From Wolbachia endosymbiont of Litomosoides sigmodontis (GTDB lineage Bacteria; Pseudomonadota; Alphaproteobacteria; Rickettsiales; Anaplasmataceae): a stretch of DNA of 32,000 nt. The notes under the pieces are model-generated. The model had not been told where the DNA came from, did no database searches, and worked only from the letters and a program-made list of their open reading frames with translations. Position numbers and translations under genes: made by a program. Positions 4,539 to 30,682 of this stretch are shown here, one piece after another. The stretch is from positions 510,001-542,000 of the forward strand of contig NZ_CP046577.1 in assembly GCF_013365435.1 (NCBI RefSeq). The letters run 5' to 3'. Position 1 is the stretch's first letter. The number at the start of each line of letters is the position of its first letter.

Positions 4539-4622
4539 ATAGTGCTATAGTAAATATTTACTTTTAAAGAATAGCAATTAACTTACTTTTAGTAAACCAG
4601 AATCTTTACTAACTTTATAATG

Positions 4623-4793
4623 AATAGACAATAATAGAAGAGAAGCCATACTGAAGTAAGTAAAATAGCGAAGTTTAAATGGAGCATTGAAATCAAAATT
4701 AAGTGCAGAATAACATATTATGTTGCAAATAAAACTAAATGGCTGTTCAAAAATAGCACTAACTGCATGGCTTCTTTTCTATTATTATCTATC
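4623..4793 (+). repeat. MITE-like repeat, copy B (complete, with ~26-bp terminal inverted repeats)
   Basis: Left end 'aatagacaataatagaagagaagccat' (4623-4649) and right end 'atggcttcttttctattattatctat' (4767-4792) are reverse complements at about 24/26 positions. The core 'ctgaagtaagtaaaatagcgaagtttaaatggagcattgaaatcaaaatt' is shared with copies A, C and D and with the IS 5' region at 25720-25765. Confidence 0.75.
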
Positions 4794-4930
4794 TGTTCCT
4801 TAAATATTATTTTCCTTCCGTTATCTACAATGAAACTCTCTAACCTTTAACTAATTGTACGAGTAAATTAAAAAAGAAACTTGAGCGCTTGTCTGTAATA
4901 CAGTATAGTAATTACTCTGAGCAGTATAGT

Positions 4931-6286: not shown

Positions 6287-6332
6287 AAAAAGTAAAATTA
6301 GATTATATGAATATATGTTTTGAGCAAAAACA

Positions 6333-6513
6333 TTGCGATATTTAAGAACAAGAGAAACTTTTCTTATCAGGCATTGTATTAGTTGGCATAAGTTAAAAAA
6401 TTTGGGGATTTTATGTCCAATTTGTATTACCTCTTCTTTTTCTTACTCACAATCAAACAATTCTACAATGTCACTAAAAATCTGTTTATTTGACCCAATG
6501 ATACTATTAGTAT
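6333..6513 (+). mobile_element. Decayed IS630-family element fragment (3' part, including a degenerate terminal repeat)
   Basis: Aligns by eye with 27675-27870 of the right arm (see 27114-27870): 'atatttaagaacaagagaaacttttcttatcaggcattg...ttagttggcataagttaaaaaattt...caatcaaacaattctacaat...tttgacccaatgatac'. The 60-aa ORF at 6333-6515 is this remnant. Confidence 0.5.
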
Positions 6514-9838: not shown

Positions 9839-9927
9839 GAATAGATAGACAATAGTTGTATGGAGCTTTATCTATACAGTTAGTGTATGTATCTTGAAAT
9901 GCAACATATTTTTTGTGCTAAAACTAT
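9839..9927 (+). repeat. MITE-like repeat, degenerate copy F
   Basis: 'aatagatagacaatag...cttgaaatgcaacatattttttgtgctaaaacta' matches the copy B end ('atagacaataatag') and core ('cattgaaatc...aacatattatgttgcaaataaaacta'), with internal deletions. Confidence 0.4.
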
Positions 9928-10013
9928 TATACATTACCTATCAGTTTCCTATGGAAAAGATTGAACACAATAAATACCAGGGGCTAATAAATTTACGTAG
10001 GCTATAAAACTGC

Positions 10014-10901: not shown

Positions 10902-11770
10902 TTTGATTTTAATTCCAGTCCTGCATCCATACCAATTTTTTCTGCATCTTCTATAAATGAAGTGCGCTCAGTAAAGTATATATTTTTTTTATCTGCCAAC
11001 ATACAATAAAGATGTAGCACATTTTTACCCACATATTTTGCCAAAGCTGCAAGTGGTGTAAAGCATGACCCATTTACTGTTTTCATAAAGCTGCGTTCTG
11101 ATCTCACTCTTATAAAAGACTTATTGTTATTGATTTTCTCTAAAAGATCTATAATTTTTACGTCATTTTTTCTACATTGAATGCAAATTGCCCCCTGTCC
11201 TACTGCACTTAACATAGTTTTCGGTGACAATACCTCCGTAATCAAGTAGTCCTTTTTTAACCTTATTAATCCTGCTTCAGCTAGAATTATTCCATCAAAA
11301 TTTTGATTCTGCAGTCTAGTTGTCACATTTCCACGCAGTGGCACTATATTTAAATCTGGTCTAAAATTTAGCAACTGAACTCTTCTTCTTATTGAGGAAG
11401 TTGCAATTATAGCTCGTTGTGGCAAAGATTTAAGACTATCATACTTATTAGAAATAAATGTATCGTATGGGCTTAACCTCTCTAGAATACAAGGAATTAT
11501 TAAGTCTTTTGAAAAAAATGCAGGAACATCTTTTAGTGAATGAACTGCCATATCTATGTTGCTCTCAATCAATTCAGTCTCAATTTCTTTAATGAACAGT
11601 CCTTTACCTCCTATTTCGGCAAGGTTAGCATTTGCATATTTATCACCGGAAGTTTTTATTTTAATGATCTCAATAGATAAATTAGGAAAAAAATCCAACA
11701 ACTTTTGTTTTGCTTCCAAAACTTGAGCAATTGCAAGACTGCTTCCTCTGGTACCCATTCTGATTAACAT
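10892..11770 (-). CDS. hemC: Porphobilinogen deaminase (hydroxymethylbilane synthase)
   Basis: 292 aa with 'GTRGSSLAIAQ', 'HSLKDVP', 'SIRRRVQL', and the cofactor cysteine context 'NGSCFTPLAA'. Confidence 0.9.
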   Translation of the reverse strand: MLIRMGTRGSSLAIAQVLEAKQKLLDFFPNLSIEIIKIKTSGDKYANANLAEIGGKGLFIKEIETELIESNIDMAVHSLKDVPAFFSKDLIIPCILERLSPYDTFISNKYDSLKSLPQRAIIATSSIRRRVQLLNFRPDLNIVPLRGNVTTRLQNQNFDGIILAEAGLIRLKKDYLITEVLSPKTMLSAVGQGAICIQCRKNDVKIIDLLEKINNNKSFIRVRSERSFMKTVNGSCFTPLAALAKYVGKNVLHLYCMLADKKNIYFTERTSFIEDAEKIGMDAGLELKSKCL

Positions 11771-11849
11771 ATATTAAGTAGCTTTGAGAAAATTAATTAA
11801 CAAATTGTTTAAGTTTTACGTCGTCATGTCTATCTTTTATTTTCTGTAA

Positions 11850-12430
11850 TACCAATTCTTGTTGTTAATGGGTAAAAAATAAGTGGCATTTGTATTTAAG
11901 ATTGGTGAGTATAGTCGTAAGTATATAATTTCACAATATTTTTAGGTACATAAGGCTTCTCGCGTTCTTAAATATTGTGGCATTCAATACAAATAAGCTA
12001 AAACTTTCTTCACTTCTATGATTAATTGTACTGTAGAAATAAAAATTTTGTCTACCTACTTTTACTTTAATCTATGTTCTAACGCCCCTTTTTAACCACT
12101 CATGTATATAACTTTCTAGTATGTAATAAATCATGATTCATCAAAGATGAATAACTCTTGTCAGGATACTTACCAATAGTTTTATTAAGCTTTTTCAAAC
12201 TTTTCCCTACCTTCCTTTATCTTGTTAGGTGTACTGCAAATTTGCTGACATTAAAGCTAAATTTTTCTTGGATTCTCATTCTCGTTCTCTTAACAATAAT
12301 TTTTTGAATTTGGCATAGAGCAAATTGGAGCCATTAATAAACTAAACTTCTAGCTTTTCGCTGATGCTTTAGGGAAAGCTCATATTATAAAGAAATTTGA
12401 TAAAGTATAGCTAAGGAAAATTGATAAAAA
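11850..12430 (-). mobile_element. Decayed IS630-family element (internally deleted, many frame disruptions)
   Basis: It begins with the same TA + 'ccaattcttgttgtt' terminus as 24987-25003. It shares the exact 26-mer 'attcatcaaagatgaataactcttgt' (12136-12161 = 25344-25369) and 'gctgacattaaagctaaatttttcttggattctcatt'. The degenerate far end is 'aggaaaattgataaa'. Confidence 0.6.
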
Positions 12431-12849: not shown

Positions 12850-13016
12850 ATTAATTTGGTTGAATAAAAAAACAGAATTCTGCTTATTACTGTAAACTTA
12901 CTGACATTTAAGCCAAATTTTTCCTTGATTCTCATTTCTTCCAAATTTTAAGTACTTTATCTATAATGCTATTTCTTGTATAGTGATAATTAGTATAATA
13001 ATGAGAATTATGGTAT
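12850..13016 (-). mobile_element. Decayed IS630-family fragment (5' part with terminal repeat)
   Basis: 'ttactgacatttaagccaaatttttccttgattctcatttc' matches 25491-25540 and 12240-12280. The end 'aataatgagaattatggtat' (12997-13016) matches the terminal repeat 'aacagtgaaaattggtat' / 'aacaatgagaattggtat'. Confidence 0.45.
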
Positions 13017-15729: not shown

Positions 15730-15861
15730 TTAAAGTATTCCTTAATTTCAAATCAATAGCCTAACATAAGCGGTTTCCCTATGTATAACTAAATTTCCTG
15801 AATCTAAGTGTCAAGCACATATCTGGATTACACCAGACCAATTTCCACTGTGCAAGAAACA

Positions 15862-15977
15862 GATAGACAATAATGAAAAAAAAGAAGCCTTTGACGAATC
15901 GCGGTTGGTACGCATTCGAAAGTTGGATAAGGGTGGTTTAAAATGGCATTAAAACACAAGTAAAATTAGATAGACAA
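15862..15977 (+). repeat. MITE-like repeat, copy D
   Basis: 'gatagacaataatgaaaaaaaagaagcc' matches the copy B terminal repeat. 'ggtttaaaatggcattaaaacacaag' matches the shared core. It ends in a second 'gatagacaaaaa'. A palindromic motif, 'ctaagtgtcaagcacat', lies just upstream at 15804-15820. Confidence 0.5.
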
Positions 15978-16023
15978 AAATTTTATCTCTTTTATACCGT
16001 GTATTAACACTAATTGTATGAAC

Positions 16024-16271
16024 GTATCTCTTGAATAAATGTGCAATTTTTAAAATACAAGAAGCCATTGAGTTCAATCATACCAAGAGACTTTTGCTGT
16101 ATATAAACAGAACATTTTGCGTAGCAAAGTCTGTGTGTAAATTTACAACTTCTCTTTATTCTCACTACGCAATAAAACAACTCTATAATATCATTTATTT
16201 GTTCTATATAATAGTGAGAATCATATTATGAGCGTGGATCTAGAGACACCTTAAATGTGAGAATTGCAATA
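16024..16271 (+). mobile_element. Decayed IS630-family fragment (3' part) with two tandem terminal-repeat-like ends
   Basis: 'ctcttgaataaatgtgcaa...aagaagccatt' matches 27654-27695. 'ttctcactacgcaataaaacaactctataat' matches 'ttccttactacacaattaaacaattctgcaat'. The ends are 'aatagtgagaatcat' (16210-16224) and 'aaatgtgagaattgcaat' (16253-16270). The 66-aa ORF at 16031-16231 is this remnant. Confidence 0.45.
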
Positions 16272-17869: not shown

Positions 17870-18015
17870 CCGAAGATCAATAAAATCAGTAACATAATCA
17901 CTTTGCTTGAGAGCGCTTATGTAAATTTATTACCTCTCCTCCTTTCCACTCTGTGGCAGTTAAACAACTTTATAACATCACTTATGTAACTTACTAATAA
18001 GCGGGTAAAATACTA
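17870..18015 (+). mobile_element. Decayed IS630-family fragment (3' part)
   Basis: 'cagtaacataatcactttgcttgagagcgcttatgtaaatttattacctctcct...cagttaaacaactttataacatcacttatgtaac' aligns with 27770-27860 ('cagttactttgcttaagagtgctttatacaatttattacttcctta...caattaaacaattctgcaattttacttatttgac'). The 66-aa ORF at 17789-17989 is this remnant. Confidence 0.45.
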
Positions 18016-20471: not shown

Positions 20472-20619
20472 AAAGTATATAAGTCAAGTTCTTATACAGA
20501 CCTATTATTCAATAAATTTATTAAATATTTTACTTTAAAATCTAATTTCTTATTAAAGTAGCTTAGAAAACACCTAAGAGAGAAAATTATTTTAGATATA
20601 TGCTGGAAAGTACCACTTG

Positions 20620-23283
20620 TTACTGTTTTCTGCTTTGCTTAGCACACTTAGATCTCTGCGCTGCTACTAGCTTTGCAATTGGTATTCTATAAGGTGAACA
20701 TGAGATATAATCCACCCCTAACTTAATGAAAAACTCTATTGATTCTGGATCTGCTCCGTGCTCTCCACATATGCCAAGTTTAAGTTCTTTTCTGGTTTTT
20801 TTGCCTTTTTCGATAGCTATTTTAATTAACTCCCCTACCCCTTCAATATCTAGTACTTCAAACGGATCGTTTTCAAATATATTGTTTCCTTTATAAGAAT
20901 TGAGAAAATTGACTGAATCATCCCTTGAGAGCCCCATAGTTGTTTGCGTTAAATCATTAGTGCCAAAACTAAAAAACTCTGCGTGTTTTGCTAAATTACC
21001 AGCAATCATTGCTGCACGCGGTAGCTCTATCATCGTTCCAATTGAATAGTTCACATCGAAATTTTCGGCCTCTTTCTTTAACAACTTACATATTAAAATA
21101 AACTCTTTCTCATTCATGATAAAAGGAATCATAATTTCTGGCTTAATTTCTACCTTTTTTTCCTTCTTTAACTCATCTACGCCACTGAATATTGCCCTAG
21201 CTTGCATACTATATATTTCAGGATAAGAAATAGCCAGCCTGCAGCCTCGGTGGCCAAGCATTGGGTTTTTTTCTGATAACTGTGCTATTTTATTTTTTAC
21301 TGATTCAACTGACTTATTTAGTGATTTAGCCATTTTTTCTATAGTCGATTGATTACTAGGTAGAAATTCATGTAGAGGCGGATCAAGTAAACGTATAGTA
21401 ACCTTCATACCTAGCATGATGGAAAATATCTCTTTGAAATCAGACTTTTGCATCTCCTCTAACTTGCTTAATGCACTTGCTCTTTCAGCTTTGTCATCAG
21501 CTATTATCAATCTTCGAATAAACTCAATCCTGTCATTAGCAAAAAACATATGCTCTGTACGGCATAAACCTATACCTTCAGCACCGAATTCTTTAGCAAT
21601 TTTTGCATCTTTTGGAGTATCAGCATTTGCTCTTACTTTAATTGTTTTAGTTTCATCTATCCAGTTAATTATCGTCTTAAATTCTTGCGATAACTCAGGT
21701 AAAATTGTAGGAAGGATGCCAAGCATAATCTCACCTGTTCCTCCATTGATGGTTATCGGATCACCTTTATCTACTATTGTATCTCCTACAGAAAAGAAAC
21801 TTCCGTTTTTATCGATATAAAGTCCACTTACACTACAAATGCATGGCTTACCCATCCCGCGAGTTATAACTGCAGCATGTGAAGTCATCCCTCCTCGTGC
21901 TGTTATCATACCACTTGCAGCATTTATTCCATTGATATCTTCTGGGCTCGTTTCTGATCTTACTAAAATTACTTTTTTGCCCTGTTCTGCAGTTTTTTCT
22001 GCATCATTTGCACTGAAAGCTACATATCCTGAAGCAACGCCTGGAGAAGCTGGCAGTCCCTTACCTATTACTTTTTGATCGCCTTTAGCTTCAAGAACTG
22101 GATGCAATAAATTATCAAAAATTTTTGGATCAATTTTTAGTATTCCCTCCTCTTTTGTAATCGTTCCTTCTTTCACCATATCAACTATTATGTGAATAGT
22201 AGCTTCAGCTGTACGCTTACCAGACCTAGTTTGTAAAATCCATAACTTGCCATTCTGTACAGTAAATTCAATATCTTGCATGTCTTTATGGTGCGTCTCA
22301 AGTTTTTTACATATCTCACATAATTCTTGATAAACGTTTGACATCAGCTTTTCCATAGTGTTTTCTTGTTCTCCATTAATCGGTATAGGAGTATAAGAGC
22401 CAGAAACCACATCTTCACCTTGAGCATTGACCAAAAATTCGCCAAAACATTTTTTTTCCCCAGTTGAAGGATTGCGTGTAAATATCACGCCAGTTGCTGA
22501 ATTATTATTCAGATTACCAAAAACCATTGCTTGTACATTAACTGCAGTTCCAAGATCTTCAGGGATATTATGAATTTTTCTATAGGAAACAGCTCTATCA
22601 TTTTGCCAAGAAGCAAATACCGCATTTACTGAGCTTAGCAACTGCTCTTCAACGTTCTGCGGAAAATATTTCTCTGCTTTTTTATGCACTATATTTTTGA
22701 AAGAGAGAACAATCTTCTTTAAAACATCAACATTAAGATCAGCTAAACTTTTTGCTCCATTTTTTTGTTGTTCTTTATCAATAACGCTTTGGAACAAATG
22801 GTGGTCGAGTTGTAATACAATATTGGAATACATCATAATAAAACGGCAGTAGCTATCGTAAGCAAAACGTTCTCCACTTCTTCTTGCAAGACCAATGACA
22901 GTTGTATCATTTAAGCCAACATTTAAAATTGTATCGAGCATACCAGGCATTGAACTAACACTACCAGAACGGATTGAAATCAACAAAGGATTATTTAAAT
23001 CTCCGAATTTACAACCTGTATCATTTTCAAGCATTGTCATATATTCTTTAATTGTGCTACATAAGTTAGCAGGTAGTCCATTACCTTGGTAATAATTTTT
23101 ATAAGCAGAAGTAGAGATTGTAAAGCCAGGTGGAACTGGAATGCCAATGTTGCACATTTCTGCTAAATTTGCTCCCTTTCCTCCAAGCAAATTTTTCATT
23201 TTTGCATTGCCTTCACACTTGTTCTGACTAAAGTAGTATATTAACTTTTCTTTTATCATTTCTTGCTTTTTCTTGATAAACAT
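20620..23283 (-). CDS. ppdK: Pyruvate, phosphate dikinase
   Basis: 887 aa with 'LLGGKGANLAEM', the phospho-histidine loop 'GGMTSHAAVITRGMGKPC', and the C-terminal PEP-utilising 'GLCRTEHMF' and 'SFGTNDLTQ'. The start may be Met9 (23259). Confidence 0.95.
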   Translation of the reverse strand: MFIKKKQEMIKEKLIYYFSQNKCEGNAKMKNLLGGKGANLAEMCNIGIPVPPGFTISTSAYKNYYQGNGLPANLCSTIKEYMTMLENDTGCKFGDLNNPLLISIRSGSVSSMPGMLDTILNVGLNDTTVIGLARRSGERFAYDSYCRFIMMYSNIVLQLDHHLFQSVIDKEQQKNGAKSLADLNVDVLKKIVLSFKNIVHKKAEKYFPQNVEEQLLSSVNAVFASWQNDRAVSYRKIHNIPEDLGTAVNVQAMVFGNLNNNSATGVIFTRNPSTGEKKCFGEFLVNAQGEDVVSGSYTPIPINGEQENTMEKLMSNVYQELCEICKKLETHHKDMQDIEFTVQNGKLWILQTRSGKRTAEATIHIIVDMVKEGTITKEEGILKIDPKIFDNLLHPVLEAKGDQKVIGKGLPASPGVASGYVAFSANDAEKTAEQGKKVILVRSETSPEDINGINAASGMITARGGMTSHAAVITRGMGKPCICSVSGLYIDKNGSFFSVGDTIVDKGDPITINGGTGEIMLGILPTILPELSQEFKTIINWIDETKTIKVRANADTPKDAKIAKEFGAEGIGLCRTEHMFFANDRIEFIRRLIIADDKAERASALSKLEEMQKSDFKEIFSIMLGMKVTIRLLDPPLHEFLPSNQSTIEKMAKSLNKSVESVKNKIAQLSEKNPMLGHRGCRLAISYPEIYSMQARAIFSGVDELKKEKKVEIKPEIMIPFIMNEKEFILICKLLKKEAENFDVNYSIGTMIELPRAAMIAGNLAKHAEFFSFGTNDLTQTTMGLSRDDSVNFLNSYKGNNIFENDPFEVLDIEGVGELIKIAIEKGKKTRKELKLGICGEHGADPESIEFFIKLGVDYISCSPYRIPIAKLVAAQRSKCAKQSRKQ

Positions 23284-23304
23284 ATTTTATAAAAACAGTA
23301 TCTA

Positions 23305-23733
23305 CTAAAAAGGTTTCATAACAACCATAATAACTATGATTATTATCAATACCGTGACCGCCTCATTTAAAACGCGAAAATAAATGTGAGTTTTCTTATT
23401 TGAACCCATTACAAACTTCTTCCTGTGCATTGCAAGTAGCTTATGAATACTAAACATAAAGAATAATGCCAGTGCTTTTATATGAAACCACCCTTCGCGA
23501 TATGTTTCCTTAATAATCATTAATATAACTCCAAAGCTGAGCGACAAAAGCATTGCAGGATTTATAATATACCTTAAAAGCCTCCTTTCCATTGTTTGAA
23601 GTAAGCTATCACTTTCCGATCTTGGCTTTACAGTTACGTGGTAAACGTATAGCCTAGGTAAATAAAGCATACCTGCCATCCATACAATGATGAAAATAAT
23701 ATGAAAAGCCTTGAACCAGCGGTAATAATCCAT
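23305..23733 (-). CDS. hemJ: HemJ-type protoporphyrinogen IX oxidase (CopD-like membrane protein)
   Basis: 142 aa with four TM segments and the diagnostic N-terminus 'WFKAFHIIFIIVWMAGMLYLPRLYVYH'. Confidence 0.8.
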   Translation of the reverse strand: MDYYRWFKAFHIIFIIVWMAGMLYLPRLYVYHVTVKPRSESDSLLQTMERRLLRYIINPAMLLSLSFGVILMIIKETYREGWFHIKALALFFMFSIHKLLAMHRKKFVMGSNKKTHIYFRVLNEAVTVLIIIIVIMVVMKPF

Positions 23734-23797
23734 GTAGATATTGTTACAAGATGTTAAAATTTCTGATATTATTTTAGTTTAATAAAAAAAAAACAAG

Positions 23798-24787
23798 ATG
23801 AAAGCAGAAAATTTCACTAAAGAGCGTATGATTGAATTTTACAGGAAAATGTTGCTTATACGCAGATTTGAGGAAAAGGCAGGGCAATTATATGGAATAG
23901 GACTAATAGGTGGATTTTGTCATCTATCAATAGGACAGGAGGCAGTTGCAGTTGGGACTTATGCTGCATCAAGACCTGGTGATGCTTTCGTCACAAGTTA
24001 TAGGGACCATGGTTTAATGCTTGCATGTAATTCCAATCCAGAGATTGTGATGGCAGAGCTGACTGGCAAAGAAACGGGGTGCTCAAAAGGTAAAGGTGGC
24101 TCAATGCATATATTTGATGTCGAAAAGCAATTCTTTGGTGGACATGGAATAGTTGGTGCACAAGTTCCAATTGGCACGGGAATAGCATTTGCTAATAGAT
24201 ATAAGAAAAAAGATAACGTAGTGTTCACGTATTTTGGTGACGGTGCAGCAAGTCAAGGGCAAGTATATGAGTCATTTAATATGGCTTCCTTGTGGAAGTT
24301 ACCTGTGGTTTATATCATAGAAAATAACAAGTATGCGATGGGAACCTCCGTACAAAGATCAACTTTAGTAACTGAGCTATATAAAAGAGGGGAAAGCTTT
24401 GGTATTCTTGGAAAGCAAGTTGATGGAATGAATTTCTTCCCTGTTTATGTGGCCACAAGTGAAGCAGCTGAGCACGCACGTAGCGGAAAAGGACCTATTT
24501 TACTTGAAATGAAGACATATCGATATCGCGGCCATTCGATGTCAGACCCTGCTACTTATCGTTCGAAAGAAGAAGTTGAAGACATGAAGCAAAATCATGA
24601 TCCTATAAGCACTTTAAAGAAGTGCATAATAGATAATAAAATCGCTTCAGAGGAAGAATGTAAAGCAATTGACAAGGAAGTACGAGATTTAGTGAAAAAG
24701 TCAGAAGATTTTTCTAAAAACAGTGAAGAGCCAAACATTAATGAGCTATATACTGACGTTTATAAGTCTACTAGACGTTATTTGTAA
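23798..24787 (+). CDS. pdhA: Pyruvate dehydrogenase E1 component, alpha subunit
   Basis: 329 aa with the TPP-binding region 'GDGAASQGQVYESFNMASLWKLPVVYIIENNKYAMGTS' and the phospho-loop-like 'YRYRGHSMSDP'. No pdhB follows it. Confidence 0.93.
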   Translation: MKAENFTKERMIEFYRKMLLIRRFEEKAGQLYGIGLIGGFCHLSIGQEAVAVGTYAASRPGDAFVTSYRDHGLMLACNSNPEIVMAELTGKETGCSKGKGGSMHIFDVEKQFFGGHGIVGAQVPIGTGIAFANRYKKKDNVVFTYFGDGAASQGQVYESFNMASLWKLPVVYIIENNKYAMGTSVQRSTLVTELYKRGESFGILGKQVDGMNFFPVYVATSEAAEHARSGKGPILLEMKTYRYRGHSMSDPATYRSKEEVEDMKQNHDPISTLKKCIIDNKIASEEECKAIDKEVRDLVKKSEDFSKNSEEPNINELYTDVYKSTRRYL

Positions 24788-24986
24788 ATTAAAGATAAAA
24801 ATAATTCCCTTACAAACCTTGCTAGCTCATAACACTGAAGCTTAATTATTTATCTTCCCTGTACAGATTGAACAATAAAAAAACTTAATGTATCTAACGC
24901 CTTATGTTTAATTTTTTGCACTGTGCGTACCTCACGTCTTTTATATGTCCACATTATCAACCAATACTATAAATCACATTTGCTGA

Positions 24987-25775
24987 TACCAATTCTCATT
25001 GTTAGCGAGTCAAATAAGTAAAATTGCAGAATTGTTTAATTATGTAATAAGGAGGTAATAAGTTGTACAAAGCACTCTTAAGCAAAGTAACTGTATTATA
25101 ACCTTTATTATGCAAAATCTTCTTGTTAAATTTTTTAATTTACACCAACTAGTGCCAATCCATGCCAAGAAAGGCTTCTCATATTCTTAAGTATTAGAAC
25201 ATTTATCAAGAAATATATTCATACAATCAGTGTTGATATTTAGTGCAAATAAGCTAGAACTCTCTCCATTTCCAGCATCTACTGCACTGTAACGCCATTT
25301 TAAAATCACTCGTGCTCAACTTTCAAATGTGTGACAAACTGCAATTCATCAAAGATGAATAACTCTTGTACGAAATATTTACTAATAGTCTCATTAAGTT
25401 TTTTAAAATCTTCCTGTCTATCTTTATCTTGTTCATTATGAATTGGTCTTGATGTAATATGTAAAACTTCATTTTTGAGGTATATTATAGACTTGCTGAC
25501 ATTCAAGCCAAATTTTCCTAGATTCTTATTTTCATTTCTCTAATGTTAATATTAGAATTTTCTTATATCCATACTTCAACTTATTTAAATTGGCTCTGAT
25601 TTAATCTAGTTCTTCTATAGCGTTGAAACTGTGCTTTTTGCTGATTATAGCAGCTAGTTTTTTTGTAACATATGCGTTGCTTCACACTTTTTTAGCATTT
25701 CTTTTGCTGATTTCGCGAGATTTTTTTTATTTAAAAATTTTGATTCTAATGCCATTTAAACAGTGAAAATTGGTA
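24987..25775 (-). mobile_element. Non-autonomous, decayed IS630/Tc1-mariner-type element with both terminal inverted repeats and flanking TA/TA (left arm of the inverted pair)
   Basis: The ends 'ccaattctcattgtt' (24989-) and the revcomp of 'aacagtgaaaattgg' (-25773) match at 13/15 positions, and each abuts a TA (24987-88, 25774-75). Minus-strand remnants read '...GKFGLNVSKSIIYL...' (HTH-like), 'QELFIFDELQF' (first acidic DDE region, 66-aa ORF 25306-25506) and 'NLLPPYY' (cf. family 'LPPYSPELNP'). Stops and frameshifts interrupt these. Confidence 0.7.
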
Positions 25776-25779
25776 TAAT
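25771..25779 (+). promoter_or_regulatory. Candidate extended -10 promoter (TGGTATAAT) at the IS terminus/TA junction, facing the rluC-like gene
   Basis: 'tggtataat': TGG is the last 3 nt of the IS terminal repeat, and TATAAT starts at the flanking TA. It lies 87 nt upstream of ATG 25866. There is no good -35. TATAAT-like strings are common in AT-rich DNA. Confidence 0.3.
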
Positions 25780-25865
25780 AAACGATTTTGCAGAGTATAT
25801 TTTGTGCTACACTTTAATCTATGCCATACAAATAACTGACACTGGTATTTATTCAGATAAAGTAG

Positions 25866-27104
25866 ATGGAAAATATAAAAACCATATCAGTAGAAGATAA
25901 CAATGTTAGGCTAGACAGATACATTAGAAGGATCTTTCCCAATTTAAAGCAATCTACAATTGAGAGGTCTTTAAGGAGAGGATTAATCAAAGTTAATGAC
26001 TGCAAAGCCCAGTCTAATGACAGAGTAAATTACGGACAAATTATAATGATAAAATACTTAGATTGTATTAAAAATACTAATTCTGATTTCAAATATAATG
26101 AAAAATTGATAGAGCTATTAAGAAGTAACATATTATACGAGGACGAATATATATTAGCCATTAACAAACCTGCAGGAGTAATTGTTCAAGGTGGAATAAA
26201 AGTAAAGATTAGTATTAGTGACTTGCTTGATCAAATTAGAGAGGGGAAAATATTTAAAATTGTCCATAGACTAGATAAAGACACAAGCGGAGTAATAATA
26301 TTCGCACGCAATGTTAATGTTGCCAGATATCTTATAGAGGAATTTAAAGGAAGGAGAGTAAAAAAAACTTACTTAGCATTAACCTCTGGCATACCAAGCA
26401 AGAATAGAGGAGTAATAGACTATCCATTGGTGAAGAAATATGTTTCAGGTCAAGAAAAAGTGGTCATTGACGAAAATTCATCCAAGAATGCTACTACACG
26501 TTTCTCGATTATAGCAAAATTCAAATTTAATAAACCTTTCATGCAACGTCCTATCATTCAAGTAGCTAATGCACAGTTATACGAACATTGTAATTCAAGT
26601 TTACCAAAAGTGCATCACTTAAGCGGCCTTTCTTCCTGTGATTTCAGTGCTCCCTTTTGTTATCCAAGTACCTTTTTTTGTCATCTCAGCGCCATGACAT
26701 TGAGACCTGGCAAAATTGATTGTAAACAAGCGCATTACACAACATTCTCAATCAAAAAGTCAGATTCTAGTGCTAAACGCTGGAATGAAACTAGATCTGT
26801 TGCTTATTTAAAATTACAACCAATCACTGGCAGAACACATCAGTTGCGTGCACATTTAGCTTATATAAACTGTCCTGTTCTTGGTGACGGCAAATATGGT
26901 GGCAAAAAAGCTTTTGTCGATGGCATAGCAAGTAAAATCCACCTTCACTCATATTCTTTATCTTTAAAACTACCAAATGGTAAAAAAATCACTATTACTG
27001 CACCTCCCCCTGAGCATATCATAAAGTCCATTGAGACGCTACACACTCTCTTTCAAGAGACAAATACTAGAGAAGCTTGCAAAGCAGTAATTAAAAAAAA
27101 ATAA
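25866..27104 (+). CDS. rluC: RluA-family 23S rRNA pseudouridine synthase (RluC/RluD-type) carrying a 92-codon in-frame insertion
   Basis: S4 domain ('RLDRYIRRIF...GLIKVN'), catalytic 'HRLDKDTSGVIIFA', 'KKTYLALTSG', 'TGRTHQLRAHL'. At 412 aa it exceeds my recollection of about 300-320 aa for this family. The extra segment lies between 'TRFSIIAKF' and 'VAYLKLQPITGRTHQ'. Confidence 0.85.
   Translation: MENIKTISVEDNNVRLDRYIRRIFPNLKQSTIERSLRRGLIKVNDCKAQSNDRVNYGQIIMIKYLDCIKNTNSDFKYNEKLIELLRSNILYEDEYILAINKPAGVIVQGGIKVKISISDLLDQIREGKIFKIVHRLDKDTSGVIIFARNVNVARYLIEEFKGRRVKKTYLALTSGIPSKNRGVIDYPLVKKYVSGQEKVVIDENSSKNATTRFSIIAKFKFNKPFMQRPIIQVANAQLYEHCNSSLPKVHHLSGLSSCDFSAPFCYPSTFFCHLSAMTLRPGKIDCKQAHYTTFSIKKSDSSAKRWNETRSVAYLKLQPITGRTHQLRAHLAYINCPVLGDGKYGGKKAFVDGIASKIHLHSYSLSLKLPNGKKITITAPPPEHIIKSIETLHTLFQETNTREACKAVIKKK
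26523..26798 (+). repeat. Palindromic-repeat-derived insertion inside the rluC-like CDS (frame preserved)
   Basis: The insertion contains 'gttatccaagt' (identical to murE 1013-1023), 'ttgtcatctcagcgccatgacattgagacctgg' (a degenerate copy of the tgtcatcccagtg...cactgggat-type palindrome), and terminal 'tatcattcaag' (26552-) / 'ctggaatgaaa' (-26790), whose arms are reverse complements at 8/9 positions. Confidence 0.7.
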
Positions 27105-27113
27105 AGAAATCAC

Positions 27114-27870
27114 TAGAATCAAAATTTTTAAATAAAAAAAGTCTCGCGAAATCAGCAAAAGAAATGCTAAAAAAGTATGAAGTAACGCATATGTTACAAA
27201 AAAAACTAGCTGCTATAATCAGCAAAAAGCACAGTTTCAACGCCATAGAAGAACTAGATTAAATCAGAGCCAATTTAAATAAGTTGAAGTATGGATATAA
27301 GAAAATTCTAATATTAACATTAGAGAAATGAGAATAAGAATCTAGGAAAATTTGGCTTGAATGTCAGCAAGTCTATAATATACCTCAAAAATGAAGTTTC
27401 ACATATTACGTCAAGACCAATCCATAATGAACAAGATAAAGATAGACAGGAAGAGTTTTAAAAAACTTAATGAGACTATTAGTAAATATCCCGTACAAGA
27501 GTTATTCATCTTTGATGAATTGCAGTTTGTCACACATTTGAAAGTTGAGCACGAGTGATTTTTAAAATGGCGTTACAGTGCAGTAGATGCTAGAAATGGA
27601 GAGAGTTCTAGCTTATTTGCACTAAATATCAACACTGACTGTATGAATATATTTCTTGAATAAATGTTCTAATACTTAAGAATATGAGAAGCCTTTCTTG
27701 GCATGGAATGGCACTAGTTGGTGTAAATTAAAAAATTTAACAGAGGATTTTGCATAATAAAGGCTATAATACAGTTACTTTGCTTAAGAGTGCTTTATAC
27801 AATTTATTACTTCCTTACTACACAATTAAACAATTCTGCAATTTTACTTATTTGACTCGCTAACAATGAT
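27114..27870 (+). mobile_element. Decayed IS630-type element, truncated at both termini (right arm of the inverted pair)
   Basis: It is the reverse complement of 24996-25748, with about 20 substitutions and 5-6 one-base indels by hand alignment. It lacks the inner ~25 bp and the outer ~8 bp of the terminal repeats. It starts 9 bp after the rluC stop codon. Confidence 0.7.
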
Positions 27871-28196
27871 ATTAATATTATCTGCGTTCTCTAAAATTGT
27901 TTTACTTTAAAGCTAGAGGTATAGGCACATTAGAAAATGTAGCAAATATTATAGATGCAAGTAATATAAGAGTACCCAAAGAACTTAGCTACAAGCTAAA
28001 ATGCGTTAGCCTTGTTAAGTGAATTACCCAATATCTTCTTTTTTTATAAACAAAATTTTGGCTATATTATGCATAATACCGTATTTTTATTTGTTATCAT
28101 ATTAATATTATGCTGTACCCACACCCCATCAGCTTTGACAAGCTTTGGCATTATTAGCACATTATGTTCTTGTCTACATAGGAAATAGAGGCCACA

Positions 28197-28225
28197 CTTG
28201 AAATTGATGTATACAATACCTATCT
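28197..28225 (+). promoter_or_regulatory. Candidate RpoH (sigma-32)-type heat-shock promoter of dnaJ
   Basis: CTTG (28197-28200), 18 nt, then CCTATCT (28219-28225). This fits the alphaproteobacterial heat-shock consensus as I recall it (CTTG-N17/18-CYTATNT), and CTTGAAA also matches the E. coli -35. It ends 28 nt upstream of the dnaJ ATG. Confidence 0.45.
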
Positions 28226-28253
28226 TTAAAAGTTAAATACTGAACTGTTACAT

Positions 28254-29378
28254 ATGAGTAAAAAAGACTACTATGAGCTGCTGGGAGTAGGTAGAAATGC
28301 TAGTATTGATGAAATAAAAAAAGCATATAAGAAATTAGCGTTAAAGTATCATCCAGATAGGAATCCTGGCAATAAAGAAGCAGAGGAAAAATTCAAAGAA
28401 ATAACAGCTGCATATGAAGTCCTGTCTGATTCTGAGAAAAGAGCAGGCTATGATCGTTATGGTCGCGAAGGTGCTTCCAGTGGATTTGACTTCAGCCAAA
28501 GTTTTGGCTCTGCAGGAGATTTTAGTGACATATTCAATGATTTTTTTGGTGGAGGATTTGGTAGCTCAAGTAAATCAAAAGCAAAAAGAAGCACAACAGG
28601 AGCACCTGGAGCAGATTTGCGCTATGATCTTGAAATTACCTTAGAAGATGCATTTAAAGGAATACAAGCACCTATACATTACGTCACGAACGTAAAATGT
28701 GACACGTGTCAAGGTACGGGTAGTGAAGGGGCAATTAAACCAGTTCAGTGCCATACATGCCAAGGAAGTGGTAGAATTAGAACACAGCAAGGCTTTTTTA
28801 CAATTGAAAGAACATGTACTACATGTTATGGAGAAGGAGAAATAGTACAGAATAAATGTAAGAAATGCGGTGGAAGTGGACGTAGAAGAGATGGAGTAAA
28901 TATATCAGTTTCAATTCCAAAGGGCATAGAGGAAGGTGCTAAGGTAAGGGTAAGCGGTAAAGGAGAAGCTGGAGTAAGAGATGGAAAAAACGGAGATTTA
29001 TATGTATATGTTAAAATTACTCCACATAAAATCTTTACCAGAAATAAAGCAGATTTACATTGTAAAGTTCCTATAAAAATGACACTAGCAGTACTTGGTG
29101 GTGAAATTGATGTTCAGTCTATTGATGGAACTAAAATAAAAGTAAAAGTTCCAGAAGGTACTCAGACTAGTACTAAACTACGCTGTAAGGAAAAGGGTAT
29201 GCCTTATATGAACTCACATACTCGTGGTGATTTGTATGTACAAGTAATAGTTGAGACTTTAAATCCGAATAATTTAACTAAAAAGCAAATTGAGCTATTA
29301 AAAGCACTTGAAGAAGAGGAAAATGCAAGTATACATCAGCAATCTGAAGGATTCTTTAGTAAAGTAAAAAAAAAATAA
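28254..29378 (+). CDS. dnaJ: Molecular chaperone DnaJ (type I Hsp40)
   Basis: J domain with 'YHPDRNPG', a G/F-rich linker, and four CxxCxGxG repeats ([32 protein letters not shown]). dnaK is not adjacent. Confidence 0.95.
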
Positions 29379-30231
29379 GAAATTTGCTAAATGATATTAA
29401 AAGTAGCTAATTATTATTGAGTTCTTCTAAATTATCCTTTAATTACCTAGTACTTAGTGTATAACTACACTAGCAGTGTGATTTAAAAAGAGGGAGAAAA
29501 CACGATTAAAAAATTACTTGACAAACTCTACCCTCACTTAATTATGAGTAATAAAGGATTAAGTTATCTTTAATCTGTATGGGTTATAATTATTATAGAC
29601 CTTTATCACGTGAAACGTTCCATTTTACATATAACTTAAAGTCTTTTAATAGGATTGCGTACTATAATTAGCTAAATCTAGGTAGGTAATTATGTTTATT
29701 TTACCAATTCTTTTATCTATTAGACTTGCTTTATTCAATTATTTTAATAAATTAATAACGTGCGCTGCCTTAGTTACAGAAGCTGCTTTTAGTTACAAAT
29801 TTAATAGTTAAATTTTATGATAAAGGAGAAAAGCTATATAGTCTAATAACGCACACAGTGTTATATTATGTCTTTAAATGATAAGATTTAAGCTTGATAA
29901 TATTGACTTCATACACTGCAATTTTAGTGCCAATTTTCTCATGTGTAATCATTTTTGAAAAATTAAAATCCAAGCTCCAGTTCCATATAACAAATTTCAT
30001 TACTTTTGTCACAGCATCAGTAATTGATAGTACCGTTAAGTACTTTGGCTATTATATAAGTTTTCTGTAAGAAAGTGCTTATTTATTAATACATGTCAGA
30101 GACTTAGCTCTTAAACTTTCCTACACATCAATATAGGGCACTAAGCTTTATGCCTAATCTGTTTTTTGACGGTGATTTCACGTTTTGAAAGCTGGAGTAA
30201 TTCGTATTAGTAAGCACTTTCTTCAGGCATT

Positions 30232-30343
30232 TTTCTTGCTAGTTTCACGACTCTTTCATTCAATAATCTTGATTTTAACACCATTTAAACCTTGTTATTT
30301 TACTTATTTCAGCAAGTCTTCCTTTTTCACATCATTATCTATC
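30232..30343 (-). repeat. MITE-like repeat, copy C
   Basis: The minus strand reads 'gatagataatgatgtgaaaaaggaagacttgctgaaataagtaaaataacaaggtttaaatggtgttaaaatcaag', which parallels the copy B left terminus plus core. The 74-aa ORF at 30185-30409 overlaps it. Confidence 0.55.
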
Positions 30344-30682
30344 AATTTAATGTATAGCCTCTTTGTTATAGCTGAAATTAAATATTTACCCTTGATCTAT
30401 GAACATTAATAGAAAGATATTAAAAATTTCTTTGTTCGTATAAGGGCAATAGATCGTTTAGTGATTAGCAATACCCAAAACAAAGTGATTTTCTTAAAAA
30501 GTGAATTAAAACAGGTAAGAAAAAGCTCAAGCAGCATTATTTGTGTTTTATCTACAAAAAAGCACCAAGCTTACTTTGTAGCCCAATTTATGAAAATTTA
30601 GCCCAAAATCAGTGAATAAAAAAAAATTTCATTACCCAAAAAGTATGCTATTTAATATAGTCTGAGCTATCTAAATAAATCT

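Follow-up and report, generated by a model that had tools for sequence, protein, structure and literature searches.

Gene conversion among non-functional insertion sequence (IS) copies of the Wolbachia strain wBm was reportedly proposed by Cordaux in 2009 (Mol Biol Evol 26:1679; cited in PMC3205602 and PMC3004938). Inversions produced by ectopic homologous recombination between inverted IS copies have been discussed for Wolbachia (Ling & Cordaux 2010, PMC3004938), and ISWpi10 and ISWpi11 are listed as IS630-family groups of this genus (PMC3205602). In this study, we analysed a window of 32,000 nucleotides (positions 510,001 to 542,000 of the forward strand of contig NZ_CP046577.1) from wLsig, the Wolbachia endosymbiont of Litomosoides sigmodontis, whose genome (CP046577) belongs to supergroup D and was assembled from PacBio circular consensus sequencing (CCS) reads (PMC8116671). 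In this window rluC, a gene of the RluA family of pseudouridine synthases, is bracketed by two inverted, 97%-identical arms. The locus very probably records the insertion of IS copies that are now dead, an inversion of rluC together with a second recombination, and later gene conversion in wLsig. Like other inversions by ectopic recombination between ISs, it has inverted homologous copies at both breakpoints, inverted DNA between them and exchanged junction flanks. It differs from the usual cases in that it is tiny (one gene, 1.4 kb), that two successive events would have shared one IS copy, and that the substrates are long-dead relics. The likeness to the wBm case of Cordaux 2009 lies in the filarial host, supergroup D, the dead IS copies, the unexpected similarity of some paralogs and the appeal to gene conversion. 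Unlike in wBm, orthologs in a sister genome allow a direct paralog-versus-ortholog test with polarised substitutions; moreover, the wLsig pair brackets an inverted gene, and its IS630-type family went undetected at the two wBm loci examined.

The inverted repeat was recovered by a repeat finder as six collinear inverted pieces and by gapped blastn, which joined them into a single alignment. Global alignment of the reverse complement of 24996-25751 (left arm, minus strand, the portion common to the right arm) with 27111-27869 (right arm, plus strand) gave 734 matches, 21 mismatches and 5 single-base gaps, corresponding to 97.2% identity without gaps and 96.6% with gaps, and a separate count gave 732 matches, 20 mismatches and 5 gaps (97.3%). 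These figures bear out the original prediction, made from the letters of the window, of about 20 substitutions and 5-6 indels. Twenty-five differences separate the arms and are dispersed over their full length, and the similarity drops off sharply at either boundary. A 756-bp repeat of 97% identity is well beyond chance, and the inverted repeat bracketing rluC is thereby confirmed as an observation. The unique segment between the arms (25752-27110) is 1359 bp long and not the 1365 bp first given; as had been claimed, it holds a single real gene, the rluC open reading frame (ORF) of 412 aa at 25866-27104 on the plus strand, whose stop codon lies 6 nt short of the right arm at 27111, or 9 nt if the right arm is taken from 27114.

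Both arms are decayed, dead copies of one IS630/Tc1-type insertion sequence. The left relic (24986-25776, minus strand, 791 bp), delimited by a search for terminal inverted repeats (TIRs), alignments and frame translations, carries many stops and frameshifts. It keeps both 17-nt TIRs (24986-25002 and 25760-25776), with TA at 24987-88 and 25774-75. Each of these TIRs has 3 mismatches in 17 positions against the reference TIR, the two match one another at 15 of 17 positions, and a 62-nt internal deletion lies behind the 5' TIR. The right relic, found by the repeat finder, blastn, the TIR search and alignments, coincides with the right arm (27111-27869, plus strand) and is without both ends, since about 100 nt including the TIR are gone at the inner 5' end, together with the last ~10 nt of the outer 3' TIR. 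The TIR search thus upheld the claim that the left copy retains its two TIRs with TA/TA flanks, and that the right copy is truncated at either end. The transposase remnants of both arms point away from rluC. All frames of either arm are riddled with stops and frameshifts, the longest ORFs reaching 55-66 aa, and an intact transposase was found in no frame of either arm.

The family assignment follows from a better-preserved relative. A raw, unrepaired frame of the right arm (27391-27558) is homologous to protein P0122 (E = 5e-18, 55% identity), which scores 37.5 bits against DDE_3 (cut-off 28.6); the ORF upstream of its gene scores 61 bits against HTH_33 and 23.9 against HTH_Tnp_IS630 (cut-off 21.3). 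P0122 sits in a 989-bp reference element of which at least three nearly identical copies occur in the Wolbachia genome OX366370.1, and the three copies gave the termini of the element (ATACCAATTCCCAYTAYA ... CAATGAGAATTGGTAT), with TA beside CCAATTC/GAATTGG. The window arms align to this element over about 650 nt (E = 1e-87). Because the domain itself has decayed in the window, membership of the arms in the DDE_3 family derives from their homology to the P0122 element. Their HTH-coding region is frameshifted and lacks a 99-nt piece that is kept solely by the left arm of wLbra, the second Litomosoides Wolbachia compared. Taken with the frame translations, the P0122 homology agrees with the initial description of IS630/Tc1-mariner-type arms reading outward from rluC. 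A hand-repaired consensus transposase, which reached 4e-19 against DDE_3, was discarded, its residues having been filled in from expectation, and tblastn of the raw arm frame against plasmids gave no match. Together with its better-preserved relative, the window element would resemble ISWpi10 and ISWpi11 in an HTH domain plus DDE_3 transposase, short TIRs and TA flanks. Unlike these groups, the window arms are 760-790-bp deletion derivatives whose best-preserved relative is itself truncated (989 bp). In that relative (L046:2488-3476, with copies at L045, L046 and L047 of OX366370.1), the HTH and DDE ORFs overlap by 59 nt, and truncation leaves the DDE_3 ORF with 116 aa, short of the second catalytic Asp. 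The element has the appearance of a defective derivative which nonetheless spread recently, through mobilisation in trans or homogenisation by conversion.

Gene order around rluC was compared among Wolbachia genomes. The ancestral order, ubiE-ABC-argS-x-rluC(+)-pdhA(-)-hemJ(+), is found in wBm (supergroup D), wDimm and wOo (supergroup C), wDcau (supergroup J) and a divergent Howardula Wolbachia. The window and wLbra have the derived order ppdK(-)-hemJ(-)-pdhA(+)-IS-rluC(+)-IS-dnaJ(+), and rluC is flipped relative to pdhA solely in these two Litomosoides Wolbachia among those compared. By its rluC product, wLbra, which is the Wolbachia of Litomosoides brasiliensis and the sister of wLsig, is the closest species representative (88% aa identity), and the rluC relatives found were from Wolbachia only. 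The gene pdhA (23798-24787, plus strand; pyruvate dehydrogenase E1 alpha, Pfam E1_dh 4e-103) is the fixed left neighbour and is syntenic with hemJ and ppdK in every Wolbachia compared. Accordingly oriented blocks are seen in the alignment of the window to wBm, where 20610-24946 aligns in reverse and 25784-27099 forward. In the two 21-kb wBm loci that hold rluC and dnaJ, no relic of the window IS was detectable, even at a word size of 7 nt.

The breakpoints coincide with IS ends. The pdhA-proximal part of the ancestral rluC-pdhA spacer (24788-24985, aligned to wBm L039:11434-11631) stops exactly at the outer TIR of the left relic, the alignment starting with ...GAATTGGTAT followed by CAGCAA. 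The rluC-proximal part of the spacer travelled with rluC and, in wLbra, adjoins the inner TIR of the right arm. When the left outer flank and the wLbra right inner flank are joined, they reconstitute the wBm spacer end to end with a single 146-nt gap at the junction. At the other side of the gene, homology to the native rluC upstream region (25777-25865, plus strand; wBm L039:~9915-10000), which moved with the inverted gene, starts directly past the inner TIR of the left arm. That the ancestral spacer is now divided, with one part at the outer junction of the left arm and the other at the inner junction of the right one, indicates an in-place inversion of rluC, presumably by homologous recombination between inverted IS copies. 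The geometry noted at the outset, one that would permit recombination-driven inversion, is therefore matched by a gene that is indeed flipped against the ancestral order with IS ends at its breakpoints. That rluC is essential was assumed in the original prediction; E. coli can do without pseudouridine synthases of the rluC type. Inversion by replicative transposition was set aside, as IS630/Tc1 elements transpose by cut-and-paste.

A simple inversion as the sole event was ruled out by the right outer flank. Against the wBm region upstream of rluC, this flank showed no homology, with scores of 71-80 where shuffled sequence averaged 75. The flank (27908-28253, plus strand) matches wBm L049:9428-10000, in front of dnaJ, and represents native dnaJ upstream DNA; the IS copy from which the right arm took its outer end would have been located there. 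The gene dnaJ itself (28254-29378, plus strand; Pfam DnaJ, DnaJ_C and DnaJ_CXXCXGXG), now the neighbour on the right, holds a derived position, being distant from rluC in wBm and wDimm. Because the right outer flank is the dnaJ upstream region, a second recombination would be required.

The likeness of the two arms was examined by comparison with wLbra. The arrangement there is the same, and on either side the sequence at the outer junction is orthologous to that of the window, so that both insertions and the inversion are older than the wLsig/wLbra split. The two wLsig arms are 97.3% identical, the two wLbra arms 76.6%, and wLsig and wLbra arms are 76-80% identical to each other. Across the four arms, 58 informative sites grouped the arms by genome, 2 by position and 2 in a crossed pattern. 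Private changes numbered 84 in the right and 69 in the left wLbra arm, with 10 in the left and 3 in the right wLsig arm. With the OX366370.1 element as outgroup, 47 by-genome sites were derived and common to both wLsig arms, 10 were derived in wLbra, and 5 sites grouped by position. In addition, the wLsig arms have deletions in common, one of them of 45 nt, which neither wLbra arm has. As the 47 derived sites and the deletions are common to the wLsig arms, and the wLbra arms are only ~77% alike, the wLsig arms appear to have been homogenised by gene conversion within the wLsig lineage, a case of concerted evolution. With some 6 private changes per arm, set against a total of some 64, the last homogenisation would fall about one tenth of the way back to the wLsig/wLbra split. 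It had been proposed that the arms were either duplicated recently or homogenised by gene conversion; the shared derived changes favour conversion, and the orthologous sites together with the ~77% identity of the wLbra arms speak against recent duplication. The initial analysis had also held that an identical architecture with equally similar arms in other strains would indicate an old, static arrangement: the orientation is shared by wLbra, but the arm similarity is not.

Some further features of the arms were observed. In wLbra (L001:8909-9890 and 11278-12224), the 99-nt HTH-motif piece is kept in the left arm only; the right arm carries an 81-nt insertion of its own, and its 3' segment has been replaced. 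A mosaic ancestry of the wLsig arms is suggested by their likeness to the wLbra right arm in the inner half and to the wLbra left arm in the outer part.

A history consistent with these observations can be proposed. After the split of the Litomosoides and Brugia Wolbachia lineages, the IS would have inserted at three places, namely the rluC-pdhA spacer (copy x), a site immediately upstream of rluC (copy z) and the region that precedes dnaJ (copy y). With x and z in mutually inverted orientation, homologous recombination between the two would have turned the 1.4-kb rluC segment around at its site. The right-hand copy so formed would then have recombined with y, and this second event would have exchanged the argS side for dnaJ. 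Both recombinations would precede the wLsig/wLbra split. Thereafter, the wLbra arms would have drifted to ~77% identity, while in wLsig one or more whole-arm conversion events, placed at some 10-15% of the time elapsed since the wLsig/wLbra split, would have overwritten one arm with the other, leaving 97% identity. Within this history, the repeat and its IS family, the flip of rluC, the location of the breakpoints, the orthologous insertions and the shared derived changes are observed; from these we infer in which order the two recombinations took place, how many conversion events there were and that RecA-type recombination had a part.

Other explanations of the locus were weighed. One arm could be a young copy of the other, made by recent duplication or re-insertion, in which case identity would reflect age; the arms do differ by 2.7%, against 16-40% divergence of the other relics in the window. 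This origin is nevertheless highly improbable, for both arms occupy sites orthologous to those in wLbra with identical outer junction sequences, which makes the insertions older than the split, the 47 derived substitutions and several deletions common to the arms were gained after it, and neither copy is competent for transposition. The likeness could also have been inflated by mis-mapping of reads between the arms during assembly or polishing, repeats being prone to cross-contamination of the consensus. Against such an artefact, which we regard as very unlikely, stand the PacBio CCS assembly (PMC8116671), the 25 arm-arm differences kept over the full length, the distinct, arm-specific ends that each arm retains, and the large shared deletions relative to wLbra, which are structural. 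PacBio CCS reads are typically long enough to span a 0.76-kb repeat. Finally, the IS-rluC-IS unit could have been mobilised whole and inserted between pdhA and dnaJ, as the inverted copies of one IS around a cargo gene recall the composite transposons Tn5 and Tn10. The wLsig unit is unlike Tn5 and Tn10 in that it has no functional transposase, one outer end is gone and its flanks fit an in-place inversion. Furthermore, rluC still lies beside pdhA, as in all outgroups, and the spacer DNA inside the unit (rluC-proximal) and outside it (pdhA-proximal) is contiguous in wBm, from which it follows that the unit never left its site; in neither wBm nor wDimm do the outer flanks, the pdhA spacer and the DNA upstream of dnaJ, adjoin one another. 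The past mobilisation as a composite unit considered in the original prediction is contradicted by this footprint, by the missing right outer TIR and by the lack of an intact transposase, and a composite transposon is extremely improbable here.

Present-day activity was also considered. As judged from their decay, the elements are incapable of transposition now, because no intact transposase remains and the right copy has lost its ends; further change would therefore have to come from host homologous recombination. Occasional re-inversion through the arms is mechanistically possible, because they remain a good recombination substrate. It could be supposed that the arms stay alike because rluC flips back and forth in present wLsig, maybe with an effect on rluC expression. 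The 756-bp, 97%-identical arms are an adequate substrate for homologous recombination, the gene conversion implies that they have been physically paired since the wLbra split, and one inversion has already happened at the rluC locus. We consider such an active invertible segment unlikely, in that wLsig and wLbra have the same orientation, the published PacBio CCS assembly closed on one orientation (PMC8116671), and no site-specific recombinase gene lies inside or adjoining the segment, rluC being alone between the arms and the named flanks being pdhA and dnaJ. The hallmarks of Hin/Fim-type phase variation, namely a recombinase gene and short sites, were not found at the locus, where the repeats are 756-bp IS relics. 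In either orientation, rluC keeps its own 89-nt upstream region; because this region moves with the gene, flipping need not alter rluC expression and there is no obvious switch. A promoter and terminator scan of 24700-28300 was uninformative, with 26 promoter-like sequences (expected 18.2 ± 4.0) and 1 terminator-like sequence (expected 1.4). Exact-protein look-ups of the window rluC product (412 and 352 aa) and of pdhA in other assemblies returned no record. It is doubtful that rluC flips recurrently in wLsig, with both orientations present in the population, and that dead IS630-type relics form a standing substrate that reshuffled Litomosoides Wolbachia genomes relative to wBm.

Several points weigh against the proposed history of insertion, inversion and conversion. 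Raw frames of the window arms reached no Pfam threshold, and the family call leans on the better-preserved relative. TA flanks are present at the left window copy and at all three reference copies; the wBm spacer has no TA at the junction, and no clean empty site with a single TA was seen in the genomes compared. The TA duplications are uninformative on the original pairing of the ends. The 146-nt gap falls where wBm carries an extra repeat unit and may represent either a wBm-specific duplication or a loss in the Litomosoides lineage, which makes the insertion point imprecise. The ten by-genome sites derived in wLbra need homoplasy or some early conversion there too, and a third, near-identical donor copy elsewhere in the wLsig genome might have taken part. 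In addition, one genome per strain was compared, which makes the fixed orientation an assumption.

The repeat unit in the spacer was also noted in its own right. A unit of ~80-150 nt (A-run, GGCAAAA..., then a core like GTGGTAGCTGGTTAT and a hairpin-like AGCGTTTTT...AAACGCT) occurs once in the Litomosoides Wolbachia, and wBm carries it a second time at L039:11287-11433. This unit may be a small dispersed or terminator-like repeat. As to the wider gene arrangement, the cumulative GC skew has its minimum at the divergent hemJ(-)/pdhA(+) junction (window ~23000-25000). Genes to the left of this junction are mostly on the minus strand and those to the right on the plus strand, and rluC, once flipped, reads in the same direction as its present neighbours.

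The window contains other relics of the IS630-type family of the arms, at ~4619-4806, 6287-6513, 9863-9932, 11978-12311, 12888-12996, 15837-16221, 17878-18000 and 30216-30357. With 60-84% identity they are more diverged, as had been noted; they occupy about eight sites and not the five counted earlier. Blocks from the wBm dnaJ neighbourhood (ispG, murB/hemC and leuS) are present in the window in rearranged form, and the dnaJ-leuS adjacency of wBm is broken at the relic at 15837. Nine of the 12 ends of wBm-synteny blocks lie within 130 nt of an IS630-type relic, a number reached by 1 of 100,000 random placements; this coincidence is partly built in, because insertions absent from wBm must fall in alignment gaps. 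What is informative in the synteny result is the change of order or orientation seen at four of the five internal block junctions.

The rluC gene itself has features of its own. Its product was identified by Pfam PF00849 and by orthologs; it contains a PseudoU_synth_2 domain (1.7e-29) and keeps the catalytic HRLDKDTSG motif. The database version (P0001, 352 aa) begins 60 codons downstream of the Wolbachia-conserved start at 25866 and thus leaves out 25866-26045. A 16-aa C-terminal extension (region 27054-27104) is present in wLsig, because the ancestral stop seen in wLbra and wBm has been lost. Within the catalytic domain lies an in-frame, repeat-derived insertion of 89 aa (26532-26798, plus strand), recognised by ortholog comparison and DNA repeat matches, which is also present in wLbra and wBm (82 aa each) and from which most Wolbachia rluC genes are free. 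Its DNA matches dispersed repeats in other Wolbachia, and the coding frame is the only one without stops. The insertion has a dN/dS of 0.16-0.39, with dN 2-4 times as high as in the remainder of the gene. A shorter insert, located at this site and bounded by the same peptides, occurs in two arthropod Wolbachia (P0004 and P0005). An AlphaFold2 model of RluC for placing the insertion had a mean pLDDT (predicted local distance difference test) of 38 and was unusable. Protein-coding palindromic repeats were reportedly described in Rickettsia (Rickettsia palindromic elements, RPE) and Wolbachia by Ogata, Suhre and Claverie in 2005 (cited in PMC1779305). Like these, the rluC insertion is a dispersed repeat in frame in a housekeeping gene and kept open. 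The supergroup D insert is apparently a short repeat with a second piece of ~55 aa nested inside. By this analogy, the insertion probably belongs to the class of protein-coding palindromic repeats, with a nested second piece.

In conclusion, the locus adds a well-resolved case to two processes already known, inversion mediated by ISs and gene conversion between IS copies that are dead; it offers no new mechanism, and its interest is modest. Three genomes order the steps, wBm representing the empty ancestral state, wLbra the inverted state with diverged arms and wLsig the inverted state with homogenised arms. The locus can serve in teaching and as a benchmark, and it is suited to long-read tests for structural heterogeneity within the host. 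It lends support to the view, put forward earlier, that non-functional IS copies of filarial Wolbachia are preserved by gene conversion, and it helps to account for the genomes of supergroup D being more rearranged than those of supergroups C and J. The rluC region illustrates compactly, at one locus, that long-dead mobile elements go on shaping the reduced genome of an obligate symbiont.

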